NCBI GenBank assembly: GCA_030390025.1
Contig: CM059432.1
Coordinates: forward strand, 37,946,001 to 38,010,000
Reading direction: 5' to 3'
Length of the DNA stretch: 64,000 nt
Source: Squalus acanthias
Taxonomy: Eukaryota
The notes beneath the pieces are model-generated. The model saw nothing but the letters and a program-made list of their open reading frames with translations. It was not told where the DNA came from and ran no database searches. The first letter of the stretch is position 1; each line of letters starts with the position of its first letter. Both the position numbers and the translations under genes were made by a program. This document shows, piece by piece, positions 12,667 to 64,000 of this stretch.

Positions 12667-13335
12667 ATGGCGGACATGAACGCAGTTTCCGTGAAACTGC
12701 CGGAGTTTTGGGAAAACCAGCCCGAAGCCTGGTTTCTCCAAGCTGAATCTCGCTTCCGGCTGCGAAATATCACCACAGATGGGACGAAGTACGACTATCT
12801 CGTCACATCACTCGGTAGCGCCGCAGTTTCAAAGGTTTGGACAGCGCTGCAGAACCCACCAGAGGAAGGCAAGTACGCACATCTCAGGACAGCGCTCCTT
12901 AAAAAATTTACGGCCTCGGCATATCAGCGAAACTGCCACCTCCTCGACCTTCTAGGCCTCGGTGATGCCTCACCGTCAGACCTCCTCTCCCACATGCTCT
13001 CCCTCACCGACGAGAGCCCACCCGGATCACTCTTCCGCATGCTGTTCATCCGCCCGCTCCCTCTCAGCATCCGCCCAGCGATCGTGGCGTCCGGCCTCAC
13101 GAACCTGGAAGCCCTGGCCGATGAGGCCGACAAGCTGCTGTCCGCTCACTCCAGCCGCGACGTCACTCCGGACCTGGCAGCCAATGCCTGGGCGCGCCCC
13201 TCACTGGCAACCACGCGGCCACAAGGGCCAGCCACCAGGCCCACGGGCCTTCGCGCCCCACTAACCCGGGCCACTGTTACTACCACGCACGGTTCGGCGC
13301 CAGAGCACAACGGTGCACACCTCCCTGCTCTTTCA
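12667..13335 (+). CDS. gag: Gypsy Gag with CHCC knuckle (one frame change before the knuckle)
   Basis: AVSVKLPEFWENQPEAWFLQAE N-terminus; CYYHARFGARAQRCTPPC at 13275 lies in the pol frame. Confidence 0.85.
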
Positions 13336-13361
13336 AGTCCGCCCCCGTACCAGCCCCCGCG

Positions 13362-15593
13362 ATGGCCGTGGGCCACGCGGGCTCCCTGCTGTTCGTTACG
13401 GATGACAAAACCGGCCGCCAGTTCCTGTGCGACACTGGGGCTCAGCACAGCATCATCCCGGCCTCCTCCCTCGACATCCAAAAGGGCGAACGAGGACCGG
13501 CGCTGGCTGCTGCTAACGGCTCGGAAATCTGGACGTATGGCACCCGGACAGTCACCCTCGACCTCGCTGGTTGCCGCTACCGATGGGAGTTCATCACTGC
13601 CAAGGTGCTCTCCCCTCTCATCGGCGCAGATTTCCTGTGCGCCCACGGCCTACTGGTAGACATCCCCCGTCACCGCCTCGTGGACATGAACACCATGTCC
13701 CCCATCCTGGGCACCATGGCCCCCCGTCAACCCGCCGACATGGCGTCACAGTGCCACGCCCGGGCCACGGATGACTACTCGGCACTCCTGGCCGAATTTC
13801 CGGCCCTTACCAATCCGACCTTCTCCGCGGAGGCCGCCAAACACGGGGTGGAACACTTCATCCCCACCACAGGCCCACCAGTGTACGCCCACGCCCGCAG
13901 GCTGGACCCGACCAAACTGGAGATCGCGCGGACCGAGTTTGCCACCATGGAACAGCTCGGCATCATCCGCCGCTCCAACAGTCCCTGGGCCTCCCCACTC
14001 CACATCGCCCCCAAACCAGGCGGAGGTTGGCGCCCCTGCAGGGATTACTGCCGCCTCAACGACGCCACCACCCCTGATCGGTACCCCGTGCCGCACATTC
14101 AGGACTTCTCGGCTAGACTGGCCGGCCGCTCAGTCTTTTCCAAGGTCGACCTGGTGCGCGGCTACCACCAAGTCCCTGTCCACCCCGCGGACGTCCCCAA
14201 GACGGCCGTAATCACCCCCTTCGGCCTGTTCGAGTTCCTGCGGATGCCCTTCGGCCTCAAAAACGCGGCCCAGGCATTCCAGCGGCTCATGGACTCGGTC
14301 CTTCGGGACCTGAAGTTCCTGTTCATCTACCTGGACGACATCCTGGTAGCCAGTTCCTCCAAGCAGGAACACCTCGAACACCTTCGCATCCTGTTCGGGC
14401 GCCTCAGCGACCACGGGCTCATCCTCAGCCCAGCCAAATGCCAGTTCGGCCTGGACAAGATCGACTTCCTCAGCCACCACATCACCCATGCTGGGGCCAT
14501 TCCCCTGCCCACCAAGGTGCAGGCCGTCCAACAATTTCCCCGCCCCACCACCATCAAAGGCCTCCAGGAGTTCCTCGGGATGGTGAATTTCTATAACCGC
14601 TTCATCCCCAAAGCGGCGTCCCTCATGAGGCCCCTGTATGAAGCCCTCCGGGGCAGGAGCGGCAAGATGGCGGTCGAATGGACGGCAGACGCATCCGCCG
14701 CCTTCGACTCCACCAAGACCGCGCTCGCCAACGTCATCCTGCTCGCGCACCCACGGCCCAATGCCAGGGTAGCGCTCACCACGGACGCCTCCGACCACGC
14801 GGTCGGCGCCGTGTATGAGCAGTGGGTCGACGGCGCCTGGCAACCACTTGCCTTCTTCAGCCGCCAACTACGCCCCCCGGAGGTCAAGTACAGCACCTTC
14901 GACCGTGAACTCCTCGCGCTGTTCCTGGCGGTCCGCCATTTCCGGTTTTTGCTTGAGGGCCACCCCTTCACTGCGTTTGTCGACCACAAGCCCCTGACAT
15001 TCGCAATGGCAAAGACAACCGACCCCTGGTCCGCCAGGCAGCAGCGCCAGCTCGCGGCAGTGTCCGAGTTCACCACGGACATCCAACACGTCTCCGGCCG
15101 AGACAATGTGGTAGCCGACTGCCTCTCCCGCCCCGCCATCCACGCCGCACACCTGGCAGTCGACTACGCTCAACTCGCAGCAGACCAGATCACCGACCCT
15201 GATCTGCTCTCCGCACCCACCAACCTACCAGGGCTACGCCTGGCCGACGTCGCCTGTGGCCCGACCGCAGTCACGGTCAAGTGCAACATATCCCTATGTC
15301 AACCTCGGCCCGTTGTCCCAGCGTCCTGGCGCCGCCGGGTATTCGACATTCTCCACAACCTCTCCCACCCTGGCGCCCGCGCATCCATCAAATTGGTAGC
15401 CAACCGCTTCATCTGGCGCAGCCTTCGCAAGGATGTGCGCACTTGGGCCAACTCCTGCCTAGCCTGCCAACGGGCCAAGGTACAGCAACACACGAAAGCA
15501 CTCCTCGAGGAGTTTACCGTCCCCTCGCGGAGATTCGACCACATCCACGTGGACGTCGTTGGGCCCCTGCCGCCGTCGCAAGGCCACACGCAC
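13362..15593 (+). CDS. pol: Gypsy Pol (protease, RT, RNase H, integrase N-terminal part)
   Basis: FLCDTGA, KVDLVRGYHQ, MPFGLKNA, YLDD, TDASD, HNLSHPG...CLAC, HIHVDVVGPLP; cut at 15593 by the retroviral LTR. Confidence 0.95.
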
Positions 15594-17206
15594 TGTAAGG
15601 GATTCTGACCCTGCGTGTCTCGCAGCCTGTGAGATTCACGCGGCTCTGTGCAGCCTGTATGTCAGTGCGGGTCTAGGCCTTGTTGCCTGTTCTGGTCTCC
15701 AGCCAGTCTGGGAACACTAGACACACCTGTGAGTGGTTCGAATCACTCTCCCTTACGGTTCTAGACACTGGACTTAGATGCGAGAGCAGTAATGGAGATG
15801 AAACTCATGTAGACTTGGTTTGAATGGTACGAAATGGAAAATCTTTATTGCATGATACTTAAGATTATGAAATTCATGTCATAAGCACAGATTAATGACA
15901 GTACAATCTTACAGAGTTATATAGTCGATCTTAGGGAAACGAGGAACGAACGGCACAAAGTAAATAGGGGCACACATTACAAATATCCTTAATCCTTAAA
16001 CCCTCCCCTATCAATATCTATCCTAAACTAGATTCGTAGGATTTCGAGACTCATGCTCACCACTCGTGATAACTCGGAGAAATTCCGAATAGCTGATCGG
16101 ATGTTTTTCACCGCAGCACCCACGTGTCGGTCAGGAGATCTCCTGGTCCCACTTGTTTACTTGCTTCTGCTGCTCCGGCTAGCAGGCTGGACCGTCTGCT
16201 GTGATGAAGATCTATATTGGTTGGTTTAACAGGTACTCTTCGAGCACAGTTGTCGATATCGTCGATACGATATGTTTCCTTGCAAGTTCGAAGAAGTCTT
16301 CCTGGCGAGGAAAACTTGGCTAATCGACCTACAGGCGCGGTCGGGATTTACTGACCGTGGCGATGGATATGGTCTTCCTCTCTTCTCATCTCATCTCATC
16401 TCATCTCGGGCCTTCGGTTCCGCTGCCAGTTACCAACATAGGTCTTCGTTACGCGACACGAGGTAGATCCGAACGGATCAGAAAGTTCAACAGTCTTTTC
16501 AGAAGAGGCAACAGGCAAGCAGAAGCCCAACTACGAGTACACAGGGGCAGCCACGATGATAAGAGCAGCAAGAGAGAGAATGGACGGTTTGGAGCCTGCA
16601 ATTATAGTGCAAAATCTTCCGTTTCCCGCCCAACTATAATGTCCATTCTTTTGTTTAGGGTTTGGCGCTCAAATGTCTTGTATGGGTGATCTCCGTTCTT
16701 AATGGGTTTCGGGGCTACTCGTAAATGTCTGAGTACCTGTTAATATTTCTCCCATTGTTAAATCGGTCGGTGTTCTCCCTGGAGGGGTTTGGGGCTTCCA
16801 AGTGTCCTGTATAACTACCTGCTAACGGCTCTCTCATCGTAGAGTCGTTGGGATTTTACATATTAATGTCTTTTGGATGGGCCCTTGATTACTCGGTACA
16901 ATGGCTTTCCTTTGTACCTGGGAGACCGATTTCAGTATCTATGTGTATACTGCAAACCCATAATGTCTTGTGTATTATCTTCACTGTGCTGAATCTTAAT
17001 CGATCTTGCACAAATGTTTATTGGAACGCCATCTTGTCTGCCTGTTGAAAAGTCTAGAATGTTCTGTCACGAGGTGCGGCGGCCATTTTACAGGCTGCTT
17101 GTGTCCACTTTAAACCTGCCAGCATTCTACTGAAATAAAAGCTGTTTGAACGAAACTCTGTGTTTTCTCCTTATTAATAAAATCGCGATATATTGCGAAT
17201 TCTACA
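15594..17206 (-). repeat. 3' LTR (1613 bp)
   Basis: Direct repeat of 23277-24946; minus-strand AATAAA at 15844-15849; preceded by PPT-like AACAGGAGGGAC at 17207-17218. Confidence 0.95.
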
Positions 17207-17647: not shown

Positions 17648-19999
17648 TTACACGGTGCTCTCATCGTGCACGCGCACGTAACGTTCTCGCCACTCTCCCG
17701 TGTTTTCATGCTTGGTGAGGCGCTTGTCTCTTTTACAATGTATGACCAATAGGTACACTACAATAAACACTTGACATACGACTAAAATGTGGGAGGCTAT
17801 TCTGATCCATGAAGGCACTTCAATATTAGTGAACAGATTCCACCACGGTGGAACTACTATGTCCATAATGTCTGTTCCTATTTCGACAGTTTTCTGCTCT
17901 AATGTATAAAAATGTTTCTGTGATACCGCGACGGCTTTCAGAAGTTTGGTTAAGTGTTCAGGGAGAGGGGGAATGAGGTATCCAAAATGCGCGACAAATC
18001 GCTGCAAGTCGGTGAAATTCTCTTTTACTGTGAGATGAACAGTGGATGGTTCAGGGATTGGGATAATTCGCTGTTGTGCTACTTGAACTTCAGCCCTGGG
18101 TTTAAAACAGAAACTGCTGTCACTCACCGGACACCGGCTACGGTTTCCATGCTGGTAGTGTTGCGCTGCAGTGGTAACACAATATGTTCCACCCCCGATG
18201 TATGCTACCTGCGGAGGCACATGATCTTGTGCCATTGCCTCCATGGTGCAATTCATGGACTTGGCGCCAGCCGTTCTGAACCCGCACTGTGGTGTTAAAA
18301 AGGCATTCAAGTGCTGGGGGCACAGTATTATGTGCGCTCCCCTGCCACGACAACCAGAGAGATCTGTACCTGTCATCGTTTGCTCCCAGCGGATGACGTA
18401 AGGTGGAACCGCTGCGTAACGAATGTGGGCTCCCCCCTGAATGACACCAATGTTCTCTACCCGATATACCGGGGCGGGCTTTGCTGTGTCGCCCAAAACC
18501 GGCATGCGTAATACTATTCCCATAATAGTATGGTTTGAACGTCCGCAGTCCACGGGGACTGGGTAAGCTTCTGAAGCTAGCCTGAGCTGGCACGGGTTTA
18601 ATGTGTTCTGAAAAGGGTGGAGCGCCCGTAGGTGTTTGTTACTTATCCAGGACGGAACCAAACCTTGTTTTAAATCCTCCAAATTACTGCGGCCCTCGCC
18701 CAGTAACCACGCCCCGTAAAGCACGCACACCTCGTTCTGCGCAGCTTGATCGGATGCATTCCGATCTTCCCTGATCAGGGCATTTACCGTACGCGCATGT
18801 TTCTCCAGCTCTGCTATAATTTCCTTTAAATGGAGAGTCATGGCTTGGTCCTCGTGTAAACCCGACCCTACCACTTTATTCTCATCTGTTAGAATGTCTT
18901 TTAACTGTGTTTTTAAACCATTAATCTGGGTCTGCAGCTCCACACTGTCTAGAGCGTTGACCACAGATGTCCCTGTGTTAAAAGCAGTGAACGCATCGTT
19001 CACCAAACCCCTTCTTTGCCTCCCTACTTGATCCAAAACTTCCTGCGGTGCGGTGTACAAACTTGTCTTATCAATTTCTGCAAAATCAAACTCGTAAAAT
19101 TGTCTGAACATCTTGGTCAACAGGACCTGATACAACTGTTCCGTCTTTTTGGGGCACCACTCTGGTAACCGTACCTCAGTGAGATTTAAAATCACCGAGG
19201 CCACCGCGTAATGTACCCCCTGAAAGAGTATCTGGTCTGTGGGGACCAGTACCAAACCATTCCCGGGTCCCTTACTAGTTTTAGGGCACCCTTCTTCCTC
19301 AGCTAGAACCACCGGAATCGTGGGCGGGGCTTTGCGTGGGCGCGTAATGAGTTCAGTGGCATTTACTGGGATCGGGGAGAATGGGGCTCCGCACCCCCTG
19401 GTGCTCGCATCCCACCTCATCCCCTGTCCGTTATCCTGCCATTGATTAATAAAAAATATGGAGATGCCTTTGGGGCAAACGTACTTTGACCCCCACATAC
19501 ATACATAAATTCCCTCATCCGGTTCCCACCATTTGTCCCAACAGACTTTCACTTGTCCGTCTGTCCCCGTAATTGTCCGATGGGTATTATTACCCAGTCG
19601 TTCCCACTCGACCGAAGAGTTTCTCATAGTTTTGCTCAGCTTTCGCAGCCACCACCATCGGCTCAATGGGACCTTCCCACTACAAGTCAAACAAATCCGT
19701 TTGCCGACGGTGACGCTGATCCTGGGTGCGATGATCCTTACTTTGGGGCACAGTAAAGAAGTCTCTTGGTAGGCAAACCCCGATGTGCTGGAATACTCCG
19801 TTGAGTTCGTTCCCAGCCATCCTGGCCACCTTCCCTTGTGGAAATAGGTGCTGGTCCCCTCTGCCTTCCGTCTTCCGGTCCCATCCACCGCGATGGGGGC
19901 CGTGTCCCCGGAACATCCAAACACCACGACATCCTTGGTGCGGCCTCGATAGGCCAATCCACATCCGATTGCCACGAGCAATACTAGAATTCGTTCCAT
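17648..19999 (-). CDS. env: Envelope glycoprotein: signal peptide, Ig-like domain, class I F-type fusion protein, TM anchor (ORF open from 20158)
   Basis: MERILVLLVAIGCGLA signal; CLTC...WWW...DEGIYVC; furin site RQRR (19010-19021) followed by GLVNDAFTAFNTGTSVVNAL and a heptad repeat; Cys-rich region; C-terminal hydrophobic ILVVCQVFIVVYLLVI. Confidence 0.88.
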   Translation of the reverse strand: MERILVLLVAIGCGLAYRGRTKDVVVFGCSGDTAPIAVDGTGRRKAEGTSTYFHKGRWPGWLGTNSTEYSSTSGFAYQETSLLCPKVRIIAPRISVTVGKRICLTCSGKVPLSRWWWLRKLSKTMRNSSVEWERLGNNTHRTITGTDGQVKVCWDKWWEPDEGIYVCMWGSKYVCPKGISIFFINQWQDNGQGMRWDASTRGCGAPFSPIPVNATELITRPRKAPPTIPVVLAEEEGCPKTSKGPGNGLVLVPTDQILFQGVHYAVASVILNLTEVRLPEWCPKKTEQLYQVLLTKMFRQFYEFDFAEIDKTSLYTAPQEVLDQVGRQRRGLVNDAFTAFNTGTSVVNALDSVELQTQINGLKTQLKDILTDENKVVGSGLHEDQAMTLHLKEIIAELEKHARTVNALIREDRNASDQAAQNEVCVLYGAWLLGEGRSNLEDLKQGLVPSWISNKHLRALHPFQNTLNPCQLRLASEAYPVPVDCGRSNHTIMGIVLRMPVLGDTAKPAPVYRVENIGVIQGGAHIRYAAVPPYVIRWEQTMTGTDLSGCRGRGAHIILCPQHLNAFLTPQCGFRTAGAKSMNCTMEAMAQDHVPPQVAYIGGGTYCVTTAAQHYQHGNRSRCPVSDSSFCFKPRAEVQVAQQRIIPIPEPSTVHLTVKENFTDLQRFVAHFGYLIPPLPEHLTKLLKAVAVSQKHFYTLEQKTVEIGTDIMDIVVPPWWNLFTNIEVPSWIRIASHILVVCQVFIVVYLLVIHCKRDKRLTKHENTGEWRERYVRVHDESTV

Positions 20000-20311: not shown

Positions 20312-21460
20312 TTAAATTCTGAGAAGGCTGCTGCGAGCTCTTCCCGACGGTGGGAGGGCACTGACCCTTCCCTCTGATCTGCCGCAGCCTGTTGCTGCGC
20401 TGACTCTTCCCTCTGATCTGCCGCAGCCTGTTACTGCTGCGATGTGGCCGGTCTGTACCCGGGTTATCTTAACCTGAAGTCTACGCCTTGGGGCAGTCTG
20501 GGGACATGACCACATCCTCCTGGGCTGGGGTTCTCTGCTTGACCTACGGGGAGTTGCTATGGGCGGGGGTTCCGTGACGGACGGACCGGGTTCCGAGACC
20601 TCCAACGGGATGACCTGGGGTTCCATCACAGTCGCCGGCTCCGCCTCCGCTGACTCCGCCTCCCTAACCTCGGGGCTGGCAGTTCGTGGCTCCGCCCTGC
20701 TCGGCCCAGCAAGCGGCCCTTCACTCGTGATCTCTGCCTCCCCTGAGGACTGGACGTTCAAAGCGGGCGGCCACATCTCTGGGAGCCACATCGGTACTCT
20801 CTGTGCTCCTATAGCGGCTGGCCCTGCCTCCTCTAGCTCCTCCCTCCTGTCCTCGGGACCTGCAGCTGGTGTGTCCACCCTGTGTGGATCTCTACCTATA
20901 GGCCCCATTCCCCCCAGACCGTTCCTCAGGAACCACCCGTCATCATCACTATGCTCATCTGCACTATCCTCATCTGACCAGGGTACCCTGGGTTCTTCCT
21001 CATCTAACCCCCAACTCCAGAAAAACGCTGCATGATCGTCCGGGATGTCCCTTCCCCTGATGCAAGCTGCTATGCCTGCCTGTGTGCCTTGTGGTCCTAC
21101 CTGGGGCTGTGCTTTCCCATTGGCGGGATTTACCCCTGTAGTTTTCCCCTGCGCACCCGGCTGGTACAGTTTGCATTGGTTTACATCCTCATACTCCCGG
21201 CTTTTGGCTACCCTGTAGGCTGCTTTTATCTCACTAAGCTGCGCTTCTAGCCTGAGCACGTCTAACTTTCCCATTGCTCGGGCGTTCTCCTCCCGCAGGG
21301 CCTGCTCTCTAAGCTGCCCTTCCAGCCCATCTATTTTCCCTATTAAGCGGGCGTTCTCCTCCCGCAAGGCCTGCTCTTTTAACCTGGCCTCCTCACCGCA
21401 GACCCCCTCCTGTGCGTGTCTTTTAAAAGGACACAGGTAGGCAGGCTGCGTGGGCTCTAG
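20312..21460 (-). CDS. Residual pol-frame ORF (~382 aa): Pol N-terminal stub + coiled-coil + integrase C-terminal and acidic/Pro-rich tail; in frame with gag
   Basis: No stop from 21460 to 20312; LEPTQPAYLCP and VNQCKLYQPGAQG match the two ends of pol in the 58-64 kb copy. Confidence 0.75.
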   Translation of the reverse strand, partial: LEPTQPAYLCPFKRHAQEGVCGEEARLKEQALREENARLIGKIDGLEGQLREQALREENARAMGKLDVLRLEAQLSEIKAAYRVAKSREYEDVNQCKLYQPGAQGKTTGVNPANGKAQPQVGPQGTQAGIAACIRGRDIPDDHAAFFWSWGLDEEEPRVPWSDEDSADEHSDDDGWFLRNGLGGMGPIGRDPHRVDTPAAGPEDRREELEEAGPAAIGAQRVPMWLPEMWPPALNVQSSGEAEITSEGPLAGPSRAEPRTASPEVREAESAEAEPATVMEPQVIPLEVSEPGPSVTEPPPIATPRRSSREPQPRRMWSCPQTAPRRRLQVKITRVQTGHIAAVTGCGRSEGRVSAATGCGRSEGRVSALPPSGRARSSLLRI

Positions 21461-23272
21461 TCATTGGGTACTATTAGACGGTCCTGCGGCACCTACGGGG
21501 CCGGTTGCGACCGCCACCTGTCCACGCGCATTCAAGACTAGCTTGCGCATGGCTCCTAACACTGCTTCGAGGTCGTCGGGAGGGGTGGGTGCCTTGGCTT
21601 CCTTAGCCGGGACCGGCGCCTGGGCTCGCACCGCGGGATTTTTATCCTTGGAATCCTTCCAAGGGTTCCTGCAATGCTTGCGCCAGTGCCCTGTCTTCCC
21701 ACACCCGTAACAAGCATTACTTGCCTGTGGGGCGCGATTACCCTCCTGATGCCACTCTCTTTGATACGGGGCTGCGGGTCGTACCTCATGTACTCTTCCC
21801 TTAAAGGGACGTGTCGTCATACCCCTTATATTACGATAACCTAACGTGAGTCGATTCAAGACCGACTCTTCCGTAAGGTTGAGGTCATTGGGATCAAACC
21901 ATGCTTTTGCCTGCTCTCTAACGGCTGGTAAACTGTTGGCTATTATGCACCTAAGCCAATGAGTTAAAGCGGCGCCTTCCACATCTTCGCGCTCGGGCGC
22001 ACCTAGACAGCTGCGCTCATATACTGGCCACAGCCTGTCGGCAAAAACCTTCGGGGGTTCTCCCTCCATCTGCACTGTCTGTCCCACTCTAGCAAACGGA
22101 CCTCCGTCGTTCGCCCCCAACACTTCCAGGACCTCATTCTTTAATTCCTCATAACTCTTGGTTCCCCTCTTGCTCTCGCCTGAGAGACACTGAAGGACCG
22201 AGCTGTCTAATGAGAACAGCAGCATTTTTGCTGTTTTCCCATCATCGCAGCCGTTAATGGCCGCGGCTTGCTCAACTTCTCTGAAATGTACGGAAGGGTC
22301 GTCTGCCTCGGTCAGCTTCCGTACGTGATTTATCATAGCTCTCAGCTGATGTGAACTGTGAGGCAACACCAGCTGTCCGAGGAGATCCCCCGGTTCTTCC
22401 CCACCGTTTCTGCTTGGGCCCCTTTTAATACCCGTTACTGGATACAGCGATCCCTTTTCTACTTCCTTTTCAATGGGCTCTTTTGTTTCTTCCATTGCTT
22501 CCTCCCTAACCCAGGTTTCTGAATAGCTGGGTGGCGCGGAGGGCGCAGTGGCTACTACTTCTTCTGCTTTACTTGGTGGGGATTTTCTAAATCTCTCATT
22601 TACTAGCGGCTGGTGCGCCGACGGATTGATAAGGCACACCATGCCGTTCGCATTGTTCACGGCCTTTTTGAGGTTCTCTATCTCCCTTTGGCAGGCGCTA
22701 TGGTCGGCTCCCTGAAACTTATCCTCAAGGGCCAACTTATATGCCGACCTAACCCCCATTAAGCTCTCTTCTTGAGTTCTTATCTGGGCAGCTTGGCGGT
22801 TACATCTTTCCTTTAACCTGCTCTCATTCAATTTTGCCTCAGTGACCTGGCACTCGAGATAATCTATCCTTGTTTTAAGGTGACTGGAGACTTCCTGGCT
22901 TTCCTGGTGTAACTCATTTAAATTCTTAATGAGCACCTCCCCTCCAGAAACCTTCTCCTCCATTTCTCCCTCTAAATGACTGATTCGAGCTACTAGCGCT
23001 GTAATGGTCTGGTTTGAAATCTGAACCTGCCTTTTGTAGCACATAAGCCAGACTGCTTTTTCGACTGTCTTTTTATGTTCCTTACTATCTGTCCACCTTT
23101 CGGCTGCCTCTAGTGGACTCTTATCCGCTAACAATTCACTTATCCATTTCTTGGTTAGATTAACCTTTCCAAACACATAATCCGCTATCTTTTCCTGCAT
23201 AACATTTCGTACAGTCATTCCAAAATCTAACACACTACCCTCTCGCTGCCAGTGTCCTGCCGCGGTCGCCAT
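21461..23272 (-). CDS. gag: Gag, 603 aa from the first ATG: coiled-coil region, capsid-like region, CCHC knuckle
   Basis: CYGCGKTGHWRKHC; PSAPPSY late-domain-like motif; heptad-rich N-terminal half; located between PBS and the pol frame. Confidence 0.9.
   Translation of the reverse strand: MATAAGHWQREGSVLDFGMTVRNVMQEKIADYVFGKVNLTKKWISELLADKSPLEAAERWTDSKEHKKTVEKAVWLMCYKRQVQISNQTITALVARISHLEGEMEEKVSGGEVLIKNLNELHQESQEVSSHLKTRIDYLECQVTEAKLNESRLKERCNRQAAQIRTQEESLMGVRSAYKLALEDKFQGADHSACQREIENLKKAVNNANGMVCLINPSAHQPLVNERFRKSPPSKAEEVVATAPSAPPSYSETWVREEAMEETKEPIEKEVEKGSLYPVTGIKRGPSRNGGEEPGDLLGQLVLPHSSHQLRAMINHVRKLTEADDPSVHFREVEQAAAINGCDDGKTAKMLLFSLDSSVLQCLSGESKRGTKSYEELKNEVLEVLGANDGGPFARVGQTVQMEGEPPKVFADRLWPVYERSCLGAPEREDVEGAALTHWLRCIIANSLPAVREQAKAWFDPNDLNLTEESVLNRLTLGYRNIRGMTTRPFKGRVHEVRPAAPYQREWHQEGNRAPQASNACYGCGKTGHWRKHCRNPWKDSKDKNPAVRAQAPVPAKEAKAPTPPDDLEAVLGAMRKLVLNARGQVAVATGPVGAAGPSNSTQ
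23254..23271 (-). promoter_or_regulatory. Primer binding site, tRNA-Arg(TCG)
   Basis: TGGCGACCGCGGCAGGAC, 5 nt after the LTR end; complementary to the vertebrate tRNA-Arg(TCG) 3' end GTCCTGCCGCGGTCGCCA (recalled). Confidence 0.85.
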
Positions 23273-23276
23273 TTTC

Positions 23277-24946
23277 TGTAAGGGATTCCTGACCCTGCGT
23301 GTCTCGCAGCCTGTGAGGTTCACGCGGCTCTGTGCAGCCTGTATGTCAGTGCGGGTCTAGGCCTGGTTGCCTGTTCTGGTCTCCAGCCAGTCTGGGAACA
23401 CTAGACACACCTGTGAGTGGTTCGAATCACTCTCCCTTACGGTTCTAGACACTGGACTTAGATGCGAGAGCAGTAATGGAGATAAAACTCATGTAGACTT
23501 GGTTTGAATGGTACGAAATGGAAAATCTTTATTGCATGATACTTAAAATTATGAAATACATGTCATAAGCACAGATTAATGACAGTACAATCTTACAAAC
23601 AGTTATATAGTCGATCTTAGGGAAACGAGGAACGAACGGCACAAAGTAAATAGGGGCACACATTACAAATATCCTTAATCCTTAAACCCTCCCCTATCAA
23701 TATCTATCCTAAACTAGCTTCGTAGGATCTCGAGACTCATGCTCACCACTCGTGATAACTCGGAGAAATTCCGAATAGCTGATCGGATGTTTTTCACCGC
23801 AGCACCCACGTGTCGGTCAGGAGATCTCCTGGTCCCACTTGTTTACTTGCTTCTGCTGCTCCGGCTAGTAGGCTGGACCGTCTGCTGTGATGAAGATCTC
23901 TGTTGGTTGGTTTCACGTACCAGTCTCCTTAGACACAGTCCCGTTATCGTCGATGCAATATGTTTTGTTAAAAGTTCAAAATAGAAATCTTCCTGGCGAG
24001 GAAAACTTGGCTGATCGACCTACAGGCGCGGTCGGGATTTACTGACCGTGGCGATGGATATGGTCTTCCTCTCTTCTCCTCTCATCTCATCTCATCTCAT
24101 CTCATCTCGGGCCTTTGGTTCCGCTGCCAGTTACCAACATAGGTCTTCGTTACGCGACACGAGGTAGATCCGGACGGATCAGAAAGTTCAACAGTCTTTT
24201 CAGAAGAGGCAACGGGCAAGCAGAAGCCCAACTACGAGTACACAGGAGCAGCCACGAGGTTACGAATCGACCGGATAAAACACAGGAGCAAGCGAGCGAA
24301 TGCAAGAGCAAGAGAGAGAATGGACGGTTTGGAGCCTGCAATTATAGTGCAAAAATCTTCCGTTTCCCGCCCAACTATAATGTCCATTCTTTTGTTTAGG
24401 GTTTGGCGCCCAAATGTCTTGTATGGGTGATCTCCGTTCTTAATGGGTTTCGGGGCTACTCATAAATGTCTGAGTGCCTGTTAATATTTCTCCCATTGTT
24501 AAATCGGTCGGTGTTCTCCCTGGAGGGGTTTGGGGCTTCCAAGTGTCCTGTATAACTACCTGCTAACGGCTCTCTCATCGTAGAGTCGTTGGGATTTACA
24601 TATTAATGTCTTTTGGATGGGCCCTTGATTACTCGGTACAATGGCTTTCCTTTGTACCTGGGAGACCGATTCCAGTATCTATGTTTATACTGCAAACCCA
24701 TAATGTCTCGTGTATTATCTTCACTGTGCTGAATCGTTATCGATCTTGCACAAATGTTTATTGGAACGCCATCTTGTCTGCCTGTTGAAAAGTCTAGAAT
24801 GTTCTGTCACGAGGTGCGGCGGCCATTTTACAGGCTGCTTGTGTCCAATTTAAACCTGCCAGCATTCTGCTGAAATAAAAGCTGTTTGAACGAAACTTTG
24901 TGTTTTCTCCTCATTAATCAAATCGCGATATATTGCGAATTCTACA
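23277..24946 (-). repeat. 5' LTR (1670 bp)
   Basis: TGTAG...TTACA on the minus strand; direct repeat of 15594-17206. Confidence 0.95.
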
Positions 24947-25629
24947 AGGCCCACAATACAGTTGTCACTGTGACGTCCACATTCAGCTCAGAACAGCACC
25001 TACCCCTGTTTTCAGTAGACATAGGTACCAGAGTGTCTACCGGAGTCATAACTGATGGGATACCTGTCTGGCCCGGCAGTGGCCCCTGACATGCCTCCAA
25101 ACTACTGTCAAGATATGGGAGGGCAGGGGAAGAAGCATCTGCACCCCCTTGATTGAAATTTGCTGTGGTCTTGTGAATGGGATGTAAAACTGGTGGATCT
25201 GTGTTCCGGCCTGAATTCCGATGCCTCTGCCTTCACTACAGAAATCCACCCAAGAAGGTGTCGAGTTTGTAGCCTGGTTTATTTATGTCCAAACAGCAGC
25301 TTCCGTCTCTTATCTTTGATGGTTCCACTCCTAGTCCTTCATCTCAACATATTTGGGCCAGTGCCCTTTCTGATCCCAAATGGAACACCCACAGCTTCTC
25401 CATTGCTAAAGCTGCCTCTGACAAGCTTGTTTTCCTCTTTTTTTGCCAAATACTTATTTTTATTAATAGTTTTTAACTCTCCATAAAGTGCAATTTCATC
25501 CAAGACTTGAACCCTTCTCCCAGTACTTGGGAGTACTCTTGCACACTTGGACAGGCTTACTAGAAAATTATTCTATTTTTTTGACTCACCAATGTGCCAG
25601 CATTTGTGGGACGAGTTCTGGAATTTATT

Positions 25630-28600
25630 TTATTTGTTCTTGGGATATGGGCACACGGACGTGACTGCATTTATTGACGATCTCTAGGGGCCTTCTTCTT
25701 GAACCACTGCAGTCCTTGTGGTGATGGTGCTCCCACACTAGTGTTAGGCAGGGAATTCCTCAATATTGACCCAACGATGCTGAAGGAACAGGGATGTCCA
25801 AGTCAGGATGGTAAGTGACTTGGAGTGTAACTTGGAGGTGATGGTGTTCCCATGATATTGCTGCTCTTGTCTTCATTGGTGGTAAGGAGGTGCTGTAGAA
25901 GTAAATGTGGTGAATTGCTGCACTGCATCACATAGATCACATATAATACAGCCACAATGTGCCTGCAATAGAGGGGGTGGATATTGAATTCAGTGGCATG
26001 GGTGCCGATTAAGCGAACTGCTCTGTCCTGAATGTTGTTGAGCATATTGAATGTTTTTGCAGCTGCACCTATGCAGGCTATTTATGAGCATTCTATCACA
26101 TTCCTGACTGAAGCCTTGTAGATAGAATCATAGAATGACACAGCACAACTCTGCGTTTTTTTTCCCTTCAAGTATTTATCCAATTCCCTTTTGAAAGTCA
26201 CTATTGAATCTGCTTCCACCACCCTTTCAGACAGTGCATTCCAGATCACAACTCACTGTGTAAAAAAATGTCTCCTCTTGTCGTCTCTGTTTTTTTGGCC
26301 AATCTTAACTCTGTGTCCTCTGGTTACTGACCCTTCTGCTATTGGAACAGTTTTTCCTTATTTACTCTATCAAAACTGTTTATGATTTTGAACACCTCTA
26401 TCAAATCTCCTCTTAACCTTCACTTCTCTAAGGAGAACAATCCCAGCTTCTCCAGTCTCTCCAAATAGCTGAAGTCCCTCATCCCTGGTACCATTCAGGT
26501 AAATATCCTCTTCACCCTCTGGTGGAGAAGCTTTGAGAGGTCAGGAAGTGAGCCACTTGTCACAAAGTACTCAGCCGCTGCCCTTCTATTTTAGCTATGG
26601 TGTTGATATTGTAAAATTCGCAAATTATCACGATTTCGAAATAACGAGAAAGAGAGATACAGATTCGTTAAAACAGTTTTATTTCAGCAAAATGCTGTCA
26701 GGTTTCAAAACGGACACAAGAAGCCTGTAAAATGGCCGCCGCACCTCGTGGCAGAAGTTTCTAGACTTTTCAGTAGGCAGACAAGATGGCGTTCCAATAA
26801 ACAAGATTGGACAATGCTCAGCATAGATTGATATAAGACAAGACGCGATCGTTTTGCATTTTGACACCTAAGCAAGAATTATAAGTACTGGAATCGGTTC
26901 TCCATGCACAAACGAGGGCTATTGTACTGAGCAATCAAGGGCCCATCCAAAGACATTGATACGCAAATTCCCCGCGGCTCTACGATGAGAGAGCCGTTTG
27001 CGGGTACTCACAGCAAGAATTCGGAGGCCCCCAAAACCCCTCCAGGGAGACTCCTAGCCGGTTCCACAATGGGAGAAATATTAACGGGTACTTAGACAGT
27101 TACAAGTATCACCGAAACCCATTAACGACAAGAACCACCCCATACAAGAAGTTTGAGCGCCAAAACATGACAAAAGATGAACATTAAGATTGGGCGGGAG
27201 ATAAGGAATTACAGTACTATAACTGTAGTGTCCAAACGTCCATCGCTCTCTTATTCTGTCATTCGCTTGGAATCGACTCTTGGCTCTTATCCCGGACGAC
27301 CGTTATTCTCTCTTGTTCCGCTGATCCCTTTTTGGGGTCGACCTCGTGGCGCGCTGCGAAATCGGGTGCACCATCCCGAAGGTCGGTAAACGGTGTCTGG
27401 ACCCGAAGGCCCGAGGAGATGAGATGAGATGAGAAGAGAAGAAGAAGAATCCACGTGCCGCCGCGGTCAGTAAACCCCGACCGCGCCCGTAAATATAAAG
27501 ACCATTTTTGAACTCTACAGGTTACTGCATGAACTGGTCAAAGACTCTTCTTTGAATTCTACCGGCTAACTGGTGTCGGTCCAGAAAGACTTTTCTTTGA
27601 GTTCTACAGCCGGGCCCGAGCACTGTCGAGTTCTTCATGACAACGGGGAGCCCAGCCTGCTTGCAGCAGCAGAGAAAATAAACAAGTGGGGTACAGAGAC
27701 CCCTGGTCAACACGTGAACGGTCAGGTGTTGCAGCGAAAACAGCCGAGCACCGTTTTAGAATTCTCCGAGGTATTACGAGTGGTGAGCATGTTTCTAGAT
27801 CCTACAGATCTAGATTAGAGCAGGCATTGATAGGGGAGGGGGGTTTATTAAGGATAATTATAATGTGTGTCCCCTTTTTCGATGTGTCGTGTGCTCCTCG
27901 TTTCCCTAAACCTAGTTTAATAAACGTATGTAAGCTTGTACTGTCATTAATCTGTGCTCATGACATGTATTTCGTAATTCTGAACAATATGCAATAAAGA
28001 TTTCCATTTCGTACTATTCAACCGGGTCTACCTGAGTTTTCTCTGCATTACTGCTCTCGCACCTAAGTCCAGTTTCAGAACCGTAAGGGCGAGTGGGTCG
28101 AACCACTCACAGGTGTTTAGTGCTACAAGGCTGGCTGGAGACCAGAGCAAGCAATAGTATTAGGCAACAAAGGCCTAACCCCGCACAAGCACCCTGAACC
28201 GTAACCCCTTACAATATGGCTGATCCTGTTAAGCTTTTATTCAATGGTGGTCCCCAATATGCTGATAGTGGAGATCTCAGTAATAGTGGTGCCATTGAGT
28301 GACAGGATAGATGACTGGGCTTTCTTCTGTTCAAGAGGATCATTACTTGGAATTTATTTAGTGTGAATGTTATTTGCCATTTGTTAGTTCAAGCCTAGGT
28401 GTTGTCTTGGTCCTGCTGGAGGCTGACATGGGCTGCTTCATCATCAGTGGAGTTTAAATGGAGCTGAACACTAAAATTGTCAGTGGATCAGCCCCTTTCC
28501 TGATCTTATGACAGAGCTGAAGATGATTGGGCCGAGATCTTCAGCAGTGATGTCCTGGGACTGCGATGGTTGGCCTCTGATAACCATAACCATCTTCTTT

Positions 28601-58089: not shown

Positions 58090-58433
58090 GTCTTGTTGCA
58101 GTTGTACAGGGCCTTGGTGAGACCACACCTTGAGTATTGTGTGCAGCTTTGGTCACCTTATCTGAGGAAGGATGTTCTTGCCATGGAGAGAGTGCAGTGA
58201 AGATTCACCAGACTGATACCTGGGATGGCAGGAATGACGTATGAGGAGGGATTGGGTCGATTAGGCTTATATTCGTTAGAGTTTAGAAGAATGAGAGGGG
58301 ATCTCATTGAAACTTATAAAATTCTAACAGGACTAGACAGACTAGATGCAGGAAGGATGTTCCCGATGGCGGGGGAGTCCAGAACCAGGGGTCACAGTCT
58401 AAGGATAAGGGTAAGCCATTTAGGACTGAGATG
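58090..58433 (+). mobile_element. CR1 internal fragment
   Basis: GMTYEEGLGRLGLYSLEFRRMRGDLIETYK...RTRGHSLRI. Confidence 0.85.
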
Positions 58434-59153
58434 GTTTTAGGGCACCCTTCCTCCTGAGCCAAAGCCACCGGAATCGTGGGCGGAGACTTGCGTGGGCGCG
58501 TGATGAGTTCAGTGGCGTTTACCGGGATCAGGGAGAATGGAGCTCCGCACCCCCGAGTGCTGACGTCCCATCTCACCCCTTTCCCGGCATCCTGCCACTG
58601 TTGTAGGAAAAATATGGATATACCCTTGGGGCAAACGTACTTCGATCCCCACATACAAACATATATTCCCTCATCCGGCTCCCACCATTTGTCCCAACAG
58701 ACTCTCAATTGTCCGTTAGTCCCCGTAATTGTCCGATGGGTATTGTTACCCAATCGTTCCCACTCGACCGAGGAATTTCTCAGTCTTGCTTAATTTCCGT
58801 AACCACCACCATCGGCTCAATGGGACGTTCCCATTGCACACCAAACAAATCCTTTTGCCGACGGTGACGCTGATTCTGGGTGCAACGATCCTCACCCTGG
58901 GACACAGTAAAGAAGTCTCTTGGTACGCAAACCCGGATGCGCTGGAGTATTCCGTCGAATTCGTTCCCAGCCATCCCGGCCACCTTCCCTTGTGGAAATA
59001 AGTGGCGGTTTCCTCAGCCTTTCGCTCCCCGGTCCCATCCGTCGCGATGGGGGCCGTGTCCCCGGAGCAACCGAACACAATGACATCCTTGGTGAGGCCC
59101 CGATAGGCCAATCCACATCCGATCGTTGCGAGCACCACCAGAATCCTTTCCAT
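58434..59153 (-). pseudogene. env: env 5' fragment (signal peptide + Ig-like domain), frameshifted
   Basis: MERILVVLATIGCGLA...CLVC...WWW...DEGIYVC...EEGCPKT, closely similar to the first env. Confidence 0.88.
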
Positions 59154-59429
59154 ATCTCCTGGTTCCTGTGATCAGATAAAATGATGTAGCCAGCCTCCCA
59201 AGAGTCTCTGGCTTTTGTGAAGGGTGAGCGGGTCCCTTGACCTCGTCTCCCGTACAAGACATGTATACTGGATAGATCTTAACTGTTCCTATCACTAACT
59301 CCCATCATTTTACCATTCACTTACAAAATTAAACTACATTCTTAACCGGGTAATTAAAACACTATATAAACCTAAACTTATCCTCCTAAAATAACTGTAC
59401 AGCGCCGCCTGTTCCCAGGGCGGCCTAGC

Positions 59430-62400
59430 TAAATCCTGAACAAGCTGCCACGAGCTCTTCCCCGTTGCGGGGGACACTGACCCTTGTCTTTGATCCGCCG
59501 CAGCCTGTCTCTGCTGAGCTGGGACTGGGACTTCCCTGGGCTGCCTTGAACTTACCCCTGGGGGTGTACGAGGGATCTGACCACAACTTCCTGGGCTGGG
59601 GTGTCTGACTCGACCTGCGGAGGGCCACCTTGGGCAAGATCTCCAGGACTGACGGACCGGGACTTCCGCCGTCACGGCCTGTGGTCCCACCACAGCCGCC
59701 GGCTCTGTCTCCCCTGGCTCCGCCCCCCTGGGCTCGGGATCTGCGGTTTCCGACTCCACCCTACTTGTTTCTCCAGTAAGTGGAACTCCACTCGCAATCC
59801 CTACCTCCCCTATGCTTGGGTCGAGGGCGGAACCTCCGTCCTCCGACCCCACCACCTCTCCGACCGGGTCACTAACTTGGTTGAGCCCTCCGAGCTCTTT
59901 CTCATCTGAATCCCAAGAAAAAGAAAAGATCCTACACTTTTCCAGAATGTCCTCTCCCCTCACGCAGGCTGCTTTACCGGCCTGTGTGCCCTGCGGTTCT
60001 ACCCGGGGCTGAGAGTCCCCACTCGCAGGTTTGGCCCCTGTGCACCCGGTTTATACAGCTTGCACTGGTTAATGTGGAACCATTTTGTGCGCCGGGGTAC
60101 CTTTACGGCATACACCATGGGACTCGCCTTATCTACAATACTGTAGGGTCCCATATATAGCGGCTCCAAACTCCCTACTCTGGCATAGTTCCTAACCATG
60201 ACCTGATTTCCGACTTCCCACTCCTGCTTCTTACGGGGTTCCAGCAACAGGCGATTGCCCTGATGCTGTCTTCCCATGTTCCCAGCCGCCTGCTCGTAAA
60301 CCTGCTTCAGGCGTTCCAAGAGGGTCTGGACAAACTTGTCCTGTTTCACCTCTTGGAGCTGACCTCAGTGAGCACCGGGGCTAGTACATGCGTGGGGGTT
60401 CGCATGATCCTCCCAGTCATCACCTCGTACGGGGAATACCCCGTACTCTTCGACTGGCTGGCCCGGATTCCCATGAGGACTAGAGGCAGGACCTCCGCCC
60501 ATTTTTGGGGCGAGTTCATAGTCTCTTTCCTCAGTTTTTCCTTGAGGGTCCGGTTCATGCGTTCAACAATCCCTGATGACTGGGGATTGTTAGCCACTTC
60601 CCTTCAATGCCCAAAAGCATGAGGGTGTTCTGCATCACCTGGCCGGTGAAATGACTCCCTTGGTCTGACTCCACGAAACGGGGAAGTCCCCACCGCGAGA
60701 ACACTTCCCGGACCAAGATCTTGGCAGTACCCAGCGCCGTAGCTGTTCTACAGGGAAAGGCTTCTACCCACTTGGAAAACACATCCACCAGGACGAGGCA
60801 GTATTTGTAGCCTCCCTGGGTGGTGGGCAGGGGCCCTATGTAATCGATTTGTATCGACTGCCATGGTCCCTCCACCCTCCTGATGTGCCCCATGTGCACT
60901 TTCCTTTTCTGGGGGTCTGGGTTGTTTGCAGCGCACACAAGACAGCTTGCACAGAACTCGCGGACCTGATCCCTGAGTCCCGGCCACCATCCCGCTTGCT
61001 CTACCCGTTGCCAGGTAACCTCAGGCCCGGGGTGCCCTGCCCCTGGCCCTTCATGAGCCAGCTGGAGGATTCCCTCCTGTGCTGCTGTGGCACAACCCAC
61101 TGTTCCTCGTGGAACAGCATGCCTTCTTTAACGGAGAGGGTTGCCGTACTGTACGGGACCTCTACCTGCTTGCCCTCAGTAATCGTTCTGAGAACTGCTT
61201 TTAGGGCGGGATCCTGGCTCTGGACGGTCTTAAGGTCTAGTGGCAGTGCTACCCTGGTGTTCCCGGGATTCCCTTCCCTGCCTTGGATCGCTGCCACGGG
61301 TCCATAGGGGTCCCAGAAAATGCCGTTACGGGCACCCTCCCTGGCTAGCGCATCCGCCTGCTGGTTGCCCTCCCCGCGGGTTCTGTGGAGGAGTGAGCCT
61401 TCACCTTGTGGATGAAAATCTCCCCTTCCTCCCCCACTGCTGCTAGGATCTTTTCCAGCAAGGGCTTCACCGTTAAAGGTCGCCCGTCCGCGGAGGTGTA
61501 GCCACGGCGGGACCAAATGGCCAGGTATTCCGTACACGAATTGCACGTAAACATACTGTCCGAACAAATCGTGTATGGGGTTGGCAAGATCTCTGGGTGG
61601 GTAACTGCGTACGCCACCGCAGACAGCTCAGCCTGCTGCGCGCTCATCGTGCTGGGGAGTTTAATTGCCAAGACAAGGTCTGCCGCAGGGTCATAAACTC
61701 CACACCCTGTGAGTCGTTCGCCAGCGGACACTGTGCTGGAACCATCGACATAAATCTCGCGGCCCGTGGGATGTATCCCGGCCCGCAAACCTATGTTGAC
61801 CTCCCACACCCCTTCAACCTAACACTGGTGGGCTGTTCCGGGGTATACCAGGTTGGCCGCGAGCTTGGGCTCGCAAAGACCTTTAACTCTGAGATCCATC
61901 TGGGAAAGGAGAAGGGTCCAGCACGCAATGTGGGTGCTGCTTACGGTCCCATCCTTAATCCTCCCATCCAGAAGCATCTTGGTTGGCGTGTGATGGGTGA
62001 GGAGAGTGATGGGAGAGAGCCCTGTGAAGATCGCTGATCTTTTCACAGCCCAATGCGTGGCTAAAAGATGCCTTTCGCAGTTGGAAAACTCCTTTCCACA
62101 TCCGTTAACACCCTGGATGAATAAACAACCGGCCTCAGCCTGCCGTGACGCTCTTGGAGCAGCACGGCGCTCAAGCTATCTCTGCTGGCGGCTACCTCCA
62201 GGAAAAACTCCTTCCCCCCAACTATGGCCCCTAAAGCTGACGCGGTCTGCAGATCCCTTTTTAACTTCTCGAATGCTGCCTGACAACCCTCGTCCCAAGA
62301 CCACTCCACTCCCTTATGGAGGAGTCGGAGCAGTGGAGCTGCTGTGGCCGCATAGTCTTCGATGAAGTCTCTGCAGTACCCGGTCAGTCCCAGAAAGGAC

Positions 62401-63679: not shown

Positions 63680-64000
63680 TCATTGGGTACTGGTGGGCGG
63701 GGTTGTGGCATCTGTGGGGCTGGTAACGACTGCCACTCTCCCGTGCAAAATCATAAGAGACCGCATGGCTCCTAACATTGATTCTATCGCATCGGGATGG
63801 ATAGGCACACCAGCTCCTTTCTCAGAGACAGGCGTTTGGGCTCGAACTGCGGGAGCTTTTTCCCTGGAGTCCTTCCAGGGATTCCTACAGTTTTTACGCC
63901 AGTGACCTGTCTTCCCGCACCCGTAACAAACACTACTGGTTTGTGGGGCGCGATTACCCTCCTGATGCCACTCTTTCTGAGCTGGAGCTGCGGGCTTTGC
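63680..64000 (-). CDS. gag: Gag C-terminus (partial)
   Basis: EWHQEGNRAPQTSSVCYGCGKTGHWRKNCRNPWKDS...STQ-stop, homologous to the first gag. Confidence 0.88.
   Translation of the reverse strand, partial: AKPAAPAQKEWHQEGNRAPQTSSVCYGCGKTGHWRKNCRNPWKDSREKAPAVRAQTPVSEKGAGVPIHPDAIESMLGAMRSLMILHGRVAVVTSPTDATTPPTSTQ

Follow-up and report, generated by a model that had tools for sequence, protein, structure and literature searches.

An intact retroviral env gene of Squalus acanthias, predicted to join a probable Ig-like domain to an F-type fusion protein

A 64,000-nucleotide stretch of the Squalus acanthias genome (GenBank assembly GCA_030390025.1, contig CM059432.1, positions 37,946,001 to 38,010,000, forward strand; here called the window) was found to carry a provirus with an intact envelope gene, env. 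As judged from sequence and structural models, the env product is probably a single-chain attach-and-fuse glycoprotein, composed of an F-type class I fusion machine and an N-terminal arm of ~220 amino acids (aa) that contains a probable immunoglobulin (Ig)-like domain and is likely receptor-binding. Membership of a young, high-copy endogenous retrovirus (ERV) is the best explanation of the gene. An initial annotation, made from the letters of the window, had described env as an Ig-like domain fused to a paramyxo/baculo-F-type fusion protein. Nucleotide positions below are those of the window, and features of the env-bearing provirus are on the minus strand.

Envelope gene and protein layout

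The env open reading frame (ORF; 17648-19999) was established by translation and genomic matches and comprises 783 codons plus a single terminal stop, so that the gene is intact as initially annotated, with the motifs named there in place. The frame remains open upstream to 20158 (836 aa); the methionine at 19999 immediately precedes a hydrophobic leader, and a methionine at this place is conserved in alignments of relatives. A signal peptide (aa 1-19, MERILVLLVAIGCGLAYRG; 19943-19999) was read from the sequence, and its methionine and hydrophobic run recur in relatives. The arm continues with an N-terminal segment (aa 20-84; 19748-19942) conserved as GRWPGWLG-NST-YSS in alignments A2 and A4, the probable Ig-like domain (aa 85-185; 19445-19747), delimited by motifs, profile and Pfam matches (C106, W117, DEGIYVC167 and a conserved CLTC), and a linker with a Pro-rich stretch and low predicted local distance difference test (pLDDT) values (aa 186-237; 19289-19444). 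The F2-like part (aa 238-326; 19022-19288) was modelled by AlphaFold as blocks of pLDDT 86-91, with a beta hairpin at aa 249-272 and a helix at aa 284-306.

A furin-type cleavage site was assigned by motif (RQRR, aa 327-330; 19010-19021), and a fusion peptide was predicted from its position right after that site (aa 331-348, GLVNDAFTAFNTGTSVVN; 18956-19009), GLVNDAFTAF following RQRR directly. The remainder comprises a heptad-repeat-A (HRA) region with a long central helix (aa 349-444; 18668-18955; model helices aa 349-375 and 383-444), a beta-rich, Cys-rich core corresponding to F domains I/II (aa 445-655; 18035-18667; invariant Cys, pLDDT 85-96), a heptad-repeat-B (HRB) helix in the AlphaFold model (aa 679-713; 17861-17965), a transmembrane segment (aa 731-755; 17735-17809) and a cytoplasmic tail of 28 aa (17651-17734). 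The transmembrane segment was assigned by hydropathy, 19-mers with a Kyte-Doolittle mean >1.5 starting only at aa 728-740. Env contains just one further R-X-K/R-R, the RDKR of the tail (aa 757). The basic cleavage site is conserved in 6 of 8 aligned relatives, and relative P0038 is without it. Alignment A1 of env relatives is invariant at N348 and D351 and, in the core, at C550, C560, C572, C584, C607 and C631. The fusion-peptide stretch has low pLDDT in the model, as is usual for a fusion-peptide loop.

Cleavage at RQRR would yield a C-terminal subunit of 453 aa, matching the ~450 aa initially given. None of the 23 Cys in env are adjacent, and there is therefore no CX6CC; a gamma-type Env was ruled out on this ground, in agreement with the initial annotation, in which CKS-17 had also been named (CKS-17 was not searched as a pattern). 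Pfam matched no retroviral TM family in the window env protein. Ten N-glycosylation sequons are present in env.

F-type fusion core

The C-terminal two-thirds of env are well supported as an F-type class I fusion protein, at the level of predicted structure. Residues 226-740 (515 aa) were modelled with AlphaFold from 46 sequences at a mean pLDDT of 73.5, with 152 residues at >=90. The model consists of the F2 hairpin and helix, a disordered cleavage/fusion-peptide loop, the central helix (aa 383-444), the beta-rich core and the helix at aa 679-713; the heptad repeat and second helix of the initial annotation thus correspond to the predicted helices at aa 349-444 and 679-713. The predicted structure has the three-domain F fold with HRA and HRB helices, and the sequence has the polybasic cleavage site, the adjoining predicted fusion peptide and the C-terminal transmembrane anchor of F-type ('subclass Ib') class I fusion proteins.

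Foldseek searches of the core model against PDB gave 248 matches at E <= 0.001, headed by the F protein of human parainfluenza virus 3 (hPIV3; 1ztm, E 2.5e-11) and followed by postfusion respiratory syncytial virus (RSV) F, Langya F and Newcastle disease virus (NDV) F. By VIA-align, 1ztm_A was matched at Z 13.2 and 8tvg_A at Z 12.8 (root-mean-square deviation 6.1 over 327 residues); the best 50 matches listed were all paramyxo-/pneumovirus F, 193 chains reached Z >= 8, and F2 of paramyxovirus F was aligned from core-model residue 20. Against the BFVD predicted viral structures, 53 matches were obtained at E <= 0.001. The best were arli-/lispi-like virus glycoproteins, a fish filovirus glycoprotein, baculovirus F (Ld130) and paramyxovirus F0, and the epsilonretrovirus Envs of walleye epidermal hyperplasia virus 1 (WEHV-1; E 2.9e-8) and walleye dermal sarcoma virus (WDSV; E 1e-5) were also matched. 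A profile of the env family reached a single PDB sequence, foamy virus Env 8rm1_D (E 0.0057), which is the postfusion foamy Env (Fernandez et al., 2024; PMC11468914). Statements about this and other cited papers and supplements hold for the parts of them that were covered.

Sequence families weigh against this assignment: neither Fusion_gly (PF00523) nor Baculo_F (PF12259) was matched by Pfam at E <= 0.1 in the window env, and phmmer of the window env against PDB sequences gave nothing significant. The env relative P0041 matches Baculo_F at 0.0011, below cut-off. The F-type reading is nevertheless well supported because the Foldseek, VIA-align, BFVD and foamy profile matches agree, and the fusion-protein class proposed by the initial annotation holds on these structural comparisons.

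Ig-like domain of the N-terminal arm

Residues ~85-185 probably adopt an Ig fold; the domain is graded as probable, not proven. The sequence hallmarks lie in ISVTVGKRICLTC (aa 94-106; 19682-19720), a Trp cluster WWW at aa 115-117 and EPDEGIYVC at aa 159-167 (19499-19525). In 200,000 shuffles of the env protein, DxGxYxC arose in 339 and the ordered pattern C...W...DxGxYxC in 114. A five-sequence profile of aa 75-200 was compared with PDB, where 6 of 10 rows were Ig-superfamily proteins and the two best were the Ig-V domain of CRTAM (E 0.0059 and 0.011). In the CRTAM alignment, profile positions 13-104 were paired with residues 7-97 of the chain, which brought C106, W117 and DEGIYVC into register. 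Pfam Ig_3 matched all five members (best E 0.0015). The best phmmer match of the window env in PDB was JAM, over aa 80-169 (E 1.5, insignificant), and the ESM-atlas neighbours of the arm were Ig families (scores 0.88-0.90, which serve as leads only).

Several results count against an Ig fold. All Ig_3 matches were below the curated cut-off (15.7 bits against 30 for the window protein), and the other 4 of the 10 PDB rows were not Ig proteins. For the arm (aa 18-240), AlphaFold built from 8 sequences a model whose mean pLDDT was 33.6, with 0 residues at >=70 and values of 22-28 over most of aa 20-84. Foldseek gave 0 matches to this model at E <= 0.001, and a wide VIA-align search found only generic beta-sandwiches (best Z 5.1, bacterial pilin domains; none at Z >= 8). 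The strands of this low-confidence model (CLTCS, WWWLRK, WERL, RTITGT, QVKVCW, GIYVCM, SIFF) map to Ig strands B-G. Its Foldseek rows were nearly all antibody or new antigen receptor (NAR) V domains at E 0.016 and worse, in a PDB rich in antibodies. Against PDB, a profile of alignment A4 retrieved zinc-finger proteins only, which is uninformative because P0005, one of the aligned sequences, comes from a chimeric gene model that includes a zinc-finger (ZNF) part. The Ig-like domain of the initial annotation thus stands as to its hallmarks, the CRTAM profile match and Ig_3 in 5 of 5 sequences, and falls short as to the Pfam cut-off and a usable arm model.

The CXXC word CLTC (aa 103-106; 19682-19693) lies on the predicted B strand of the Ig-like domain. 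All 5 of 5 close relatives have it unchanged, and an extra disulfide to C153 is possible. Its counterparts in other shark lineages are CFTC (P0013) and CTC (P0014).

The arm among relatives and published Envs

An exhaustive phmmer search of 1.84 billion protein representatives returned 50 env relatives at E <= 0.001, to which a word-indexed search with alignment A1 added just 7 close relatives. The nearest were annotated in Rhinoraja longicauda (75% identity), Pristiophorus japonicus, Mustelus asterias and Chiloscyllium punctatum, and more distant ones in the frogs Pelodytes, Mantella and Xenopus. The arm is present at 50-73% identity in elements annotated in the Rhinoraja and Pristiophorus genomes. 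Alignments with distant relatives begin only at about aa 221-237, and the ~220 residues before that point are therefore read as an add-on to F2. In relative P0038 the F2 part directly follows the signal peptide and there is no arm.

Distant full-length relatives carry N-terminal arms of their own with weaker Ig signs. When four such segments were searched with Pfam, Ig_3 matched two (best E 0.0072), V-set one (0.0015) and I-set one (0.019), and two non-Ig chance families were also matched by the same segments. A frog arm segment had the same ESM-atlas neighbours (0.87-0.88), and the Chiloscyllium relative P0014 bears the UniRef name 'Ig-like domain-containing protein'. A point against a shared Ig domain is that hhalign gave no significant match of the window-arm profile to the arms of frogs (A7), to P0014 or to P0013 (E 0.04-0.1, probability about 1%). 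On visual inspection, the window arm can be lined up with P0014 at the words CxTC, WxW and W..(F/W)W...G.I.C.

Two further observations concern individual relatives. Residues 1-66 of the Pelodytes relative P0021 comprise a charged stretch, a hydrophobic anchor (aa ~26-43) and REKR (aa 62-65) before the arm, an N-terminus reminiscent, by analogy, of the cleaved leader peptide of foamy virus Env. Public gene models P0004, P0005, P0012 and P0041 fuse Env pieces to host genes (Niban 1-like, ZFP2-like, cadherin, fbxo15); such fusions probably reflect faulty annotation where proviruses lie within or close to genes.

Published Envs were compared at their N-termini. The lokiretrovirus consensus runs from a signal peptide to a PGP..GIVL...PGLLIT start, with R-X-K/R-R ~90-115 residues later (Wang and Han, 2020; PMC7947760). 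The window env has GPGNGLVLVP at aa 244-253, after the arm, which resembles that PGP..GIVL start. The arm was absent from 16 of 16 lokiretrovirus Env N-termini, in a comparison that covered 17 of the 23 supplement entries, one of them a C-terminal fragment, and neither 'immunoglobulin' nor 'Ig-like' occurs in the main text of Wang and Han (PMC7947760). The literature searched, which included 10.1101/2023.10.26.564294, 10.1101/2024.03.17.585361 and 10.1101/2021.11.23.469661 apart from their supplements, yielded no description of an F-type retroviral Env that bears an Ig domain; within this scope, the initial suggestion of an undescribed architecture holds.

All phmmer matches over the arm were Env relatives or chimeric gene models, and no host Ig protein among the 1.84 billion representatives reached E <= 0.001. 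Recent capture from the host, one sense of the possibly host-derived module initially proposed, is therefore unsupported and was rejected; an ancient capture of the Ig domain is a possibility.

Copy number, selection and read data

All 57 scored genomic env matches were full length, without stops and at 99-100% aa identity. The copy number is at least 57, since only 57 of 12,927 first-look candidates in the 3.7-Gb genome were scored. Scored RT (reverse transcriptase) matches numbered 108 at 95-100% identity, many in open frames of about 1495 aa. Among the best 12 env loci (L001-L012), 7 including the window share a pol deletion and 5 have integrase-coding sequence upstream; because the same deletion is shared by 7 of 12, the gag-env-only form itself appears to have been copied many times with env intact. 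Pairs or triplets of env or RT matches were also seen 7.7-12.4 kb apart on the same strand (C792, C6, C9, C7, C15, C3716), which suggests tandem proviral arrays sharing long terminal repeats (LTRs).

Eleven other copies differed from the window env at 8-15 synonymous and only 2-4 nonsynonymous codons, a contrast that overstates constraint in so far as these copies were the best by protein score and hence biased against nonsynonymous changes. Two comparisons free of this bias were made, with the second copy in the window and with the related locus L017/L018. Against the second copy, the ratio of nonsynonymous to synonymous substitution rates (dN/dS) was 0.125 for the arm as a whole and 0.10 for its Ig segment. 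Against L017/L018 it was 0.084 for the whole gene (168 synonymous and 60 nonsynonymous differences) and, by part, 0.037 for the Ig segment, 0.082 for the linker, 0.081 for F2, 0.081 for F1 and 0.19 for the first 84 residues; the N-terminal segment (aa 20-84) gave 0.14-0.19 across both comparisons. Because dN/dS was low in both, env, and the Ig segment above all, is taken to have been under strong purifying selection during lineage divergence. Such selection fits a protein needed for spread and fits neither a decaying relic nor a fast-changing decoy. The initial idea of an immune decoy sits poorly with an Ig segment that is the most constrained part of Env.

Two read runs that were only guessed to be RNA (X1 and X3) contain the family. 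Their env bins are ~4-5x deeper than gag/pol-tail bins, a depth not readable as expression, and no canonical splice joint was seen. One X3 contig skips 19376-19811 (436 bases), approximately the Ig-like region, with only 27 letters on the shorter side and ends that do not conform to canonical splice sites; a deletion variant or an artefact of the assembly could account for it.

Proposed mechanism and alternative explanations

The signal peptide would direct the env product into the endoplasmic reticulum. A furin-type protease would then cut at RQRR, by analogy with paramyxovirus F; the arm plus F2 (aa 20-330) would stay joined to F1 (aa 331-783), which would now begin with the fusion peptide. 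With its predicted C106-C167 disulfide over W117, the Ig-like domain (aa ~85-185) may bind a cell-surface molecule, and receptor binding or low pH may trigger the metastable F core to refold into the six-helix state of HRA and HRB as drawn by AlphaFold. This single-chain reading matches the view of F as a minimal scaffold to which receptor-binding modules are added N-terminally or between the subunits (Fernandez et al., 2024; PMC11468914).

The arm could instead be Ig-like without binding a receptor, serving as a prefusion cap for the F core or a glycan shield, while attachment occurs elsewhere or through another protein. Four of the ten sequons (N65, N127, N137, N213) are in the arm, and it is highly constrained rather than variable, unlike many receptor-binding domains in an arms race. 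This explanation is nonetheless considered unlikely: no second glycoprotein is encoded by the window provirus or its pol-bearing relative, and an armless F of the paramyxovirus type needs a separate attachment protein, which in paramyxoviruses is HN, H or G. Other F-scaffold proteins bind receptors via N-terminal or inserted modules (PMC11468914). An equally improbable account denies the Ig fold and ascribes C...W...DxGxYxC and the weak Ig matches to chance in a Cys/Trp-rich, beta-rich segment of another fold. The failed arm model, the Pfam matches under the curated threshold, the wide structural search topped by pilin domains and the hhalign result across lineages are all as it would predict; set against them are the independent methods (phmmer, ESM-atlas, profile, Pfam, Foldseek) that all indicate the Ig superfamily, a CRTAM alignment covering the whole domain with three hallmark positions in register, the rarity of the pattern in shuffles and the UniRef name of P0014.

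Two other explanations are far less credible. The window copy might be a host gene in the making, its env co-opted as a cell-cell fusogen, as the initial annotation had considered, or as a receptor-blocking restriction factor; its ORF has stayed open in a provirus that lacks pol and whose LTRs have diverged by ~3.5%. With at least 57 intact copies at 99-100% identity over many contigs, each in proviral context and some in tandem arrays, and with the pol deletion itself copied (7 of the 12 best loci), a single co-opted gene was rejected. Recent capture of the Ig domain from a host gene for an Ig cell-adhesion molecule (Ig-CAM; CRTAM/JAM/nectin-like) would agree with the best PDB matches of the arm being host cell-adhesion Ig domains. 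It was given a similarly slight chance, those matches reaching only E 0.006-1.5, no host protein passing the threshold in the exhaustive search, and the arm being already common to the Rhinoraja and Pristiophorus elements.

Within the preferred reading of env as a single-chain attach-and-fuse protein, a broader scenario is put forward tentatively, as one that is doubtful in its entirety. A cartilaginous-fish retrovirus lineage with frog relatives may have made the bare F scaffold self-sufficient by means of a cell-adhesion-type Ig domain that docks on a host Ig-CAM (nectin/JAM/CRTAM-like) in the way such molecules bind one another; it would be infectious in this host now or until very recently and would have spawned a gag-env-only parasite that retains a functional Env and borrows polymerase from full-length kin. 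F-type proteins are otherwise either bare machines needing a partner (paramyxoviruses) or scaffolds with large non-Ig receptor-binding parts (coronavirus S, foamy Env). If the reading is correct, a small Ig head of classical appearance on the F-type Env of a retrovirus would provide a new and compact means of combining attachment with fusion, and the fish retroviral Envs (loki-, epsilon-, foamy- and SnRV-like, the last after snakehead retrovirus) would be linked to one structural family. It would also extend the idea of the F fold as a module-accepting scaffold (PMC11468914). A very young, abundant family under strong purifying selection is a rare natural system for env function in a non-mammalian ERV, and the pol-less form makes one ask why env should be retained by an element that is not autonomous.

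Provirus architecture and surroundings

The provirus is bounded by a 3' LTR (15593-17206) and a 5' LTR (23276-24946). Between them are gag (21461-23272; 603 aa, identified by ORF and Pfam, with a CCHC knuckle and an N-terminal coiled-coil-like stretch), a pol remnant (20312-21460) and env. The remnant is a 382-codon frame in the same frame as gag after one stop and, by comparison with pol-bearing copies, corresponds only to the tail behind integrase; no protease, RT, RNase H or integrase was detected by Pfam in the window provirus. The LTR pair differs by 59 mismatches and 61 gap columns in 1676 columns, and no matching target-site duplication was found at the LTR ends as placed (15592-15608 and 24946-24960). 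The window provirus is therefore not itself a fresh insertion, a point counted against the best explanation. Its 3' LTR abuts a Gypsy-like pol ORF (13125-15608, plus strand) that does not resume beyond the 5' LTR; recombination between two insertions may have produced the provirus, or it may lie in a rearranged spot.

In a second, degraded copy (58433-64000), the interval from the end of gag to the start of env does contain protease, RT, RNase H and integrase. Downstream of this degraded pol is a broken env arm (58433-59171, minus strand) at 86-88% aa identity, which has one frameshift and is truncated at about aa 241 in the numbering of the 783-aa Env (aa 294 of the ORF); conservation of the Ig part in this copy had been noted initially and is borne out. 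On another contig, the pol-bearing relative L017+L018 encodes a gag of 611 aa and, in frame after one stop, a pol of 1496 aa with Pfam matches to RVP, RVT_1, RT_RNaseH_2, RNase_H, Integrase_H2C2 and rve; its env is broken by one frameshift and its LTRs are 99.0% alike.

The single stop between in-frame gag and pol (21461-21463; L017 5201-5203) suggests, from the sequence, stop-codon readthrough. Gag and pol in one frame separated by a stop is the epsilonretrovirus arrangement. The gag ATG is two bases past the LTR repeat, and a primer-binding-site-like stretch starting with TGG (TGGCGACCGCGG...) overlaps the first gag codons (23270-23290; L017 3387-3395). The N-terminal third of Gag (aa ~90-200; 22900-23200) is coiled-coil-like with weak Pfam matches only; some lokiretroviruses have an SMC-like coiled-coil region in front of Gag (PMC7947760). 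Elsewhere in the window, inverted fragments at 26609-27267 and 27725-28154 are 78-81% identical to the family LTR and are older relics of a related element, and an unrelated long interspersed nuclear element (LINE; 36989-39301, plus strand) has a 770-codon open frame with endonuclease and reverse-transcriptase domains.

Retroviral affiliation

Placement in the SnRV clade is a lead, obtained by word look-up in a printed alignment. In the supplement of Wang and Han, whose RT alignments were consulted, the RT words LDISNGFWSI and LPQGFH of this element are confined to SnRV rows (3 of 3 occurrences), and about 36 of 58 residues around them are, by eye, identical to SnRV. SnRV-like ERVs are known from elephant shark (CmiERV lineage I; Han, 2015; PMC4422223). 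VFSRWGLP, an 8-mer of the element's integrase, also stands in 6 Loki Pol entries printed in the Wang and Han supplement. Against PDB sequences, pol was about equally close to Ty3 (1.4e-72), murine leukaemia virus (MLV)-type RT (4.6e-70) and foamy protease-RT (2e-63). The 1496-aa pol of L017+L018 has a dual RNase H (RT_RNaseH_2 at aa 470-558, RNase_H at aa 650-792), a lokiretrovirus feature that is also present in canonical retroviruses. Lokiretroviruses had 0 positives among the 3 orectolobiform sharks tallied under Chondrichthyes, with Callorhinchus also in the genome list (PMC7947760). An assignment to the lokiretroviruses, to which the initial annotation had linked env, is unproven, and the RT motifs point to the SnRV clade instead.

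Comparison with known systems

The window env resembles paramyxo-/pneumovirus F (1ztm, 8tvg, NDV 3maw, RSV 3rki) in its signal peptide, short F2, polybasic site, fusion peptide at the new N-terminus, HRA, beta-rich domains I/II, HRB, transmembrane segment and short tail, and in its predicted fold (E 2.5e-11, Z 12-13). It differs in having no PF00523 match, in an identity of about 10-15% in structural alignments, in being encoded by a retrovirus and in its ~220-aa arm, where those viruses use a separate attachment protein. Lokiretrovirus Env is likewise an F-like Env of a vertebrate retroelement with a signal peptide, R-X-K/R-R, fusion peptide, coiled coil and transmembrane segment (PMC7947760), but matched PF00523 at 2.2e-7, where the window env has no match at E <= 0.1, and its F2 comes straight after the signal peptide in the 16 N-termini compared.

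The fusion subunit of foamy virus Env gp130 (8RM0/8RM1), likewise a retroviral protein, has the F fold; this Env carries a leader peptide and a receptor-binding part between the subunits (PMC11468914), whereas the module of the window env is N-terminal of F2. The epsilonretrovirus Envs (WEHV-1 Q9WHI8, WDSV A4GTG3) are also from fish retroviruses and their models match the F core, but at 1159-1317 aa they have a much larger surface part, and phmmer found no sequence similarity between them and the window env. With the SnRV clade, including CmiERV lineage I, the element shares the RT words LDISNGFWSI and LPQGFH. Host Ig-CAM V/I-set domains (CRTAM 4h5s/3rbg, JAM 1f97) share the B-strand Cys, C-strand Trp and F-strand DxGxYxC in register, although their similarity to the arm is weak (E 0.006 to 1.5) and shows no sign of recent descent.

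The receptor-binding domain RBD-C of gamma-type Envs (MLV, feline leukaemia virus (FeLV), Env-Pb1) is likewise an independently folding, IgV-like domain at the Env N-terminus, joined to a gamma-type TM with CX6CC and Ig-like in structure only (Hotzel, 2024; 10.1101/2024.03.17.585361). The window env, by comparison, is without CX6CC, is predicted to place its arm on an F-type scaffold and bears the classical sequence hallmarks of an Ig domain.

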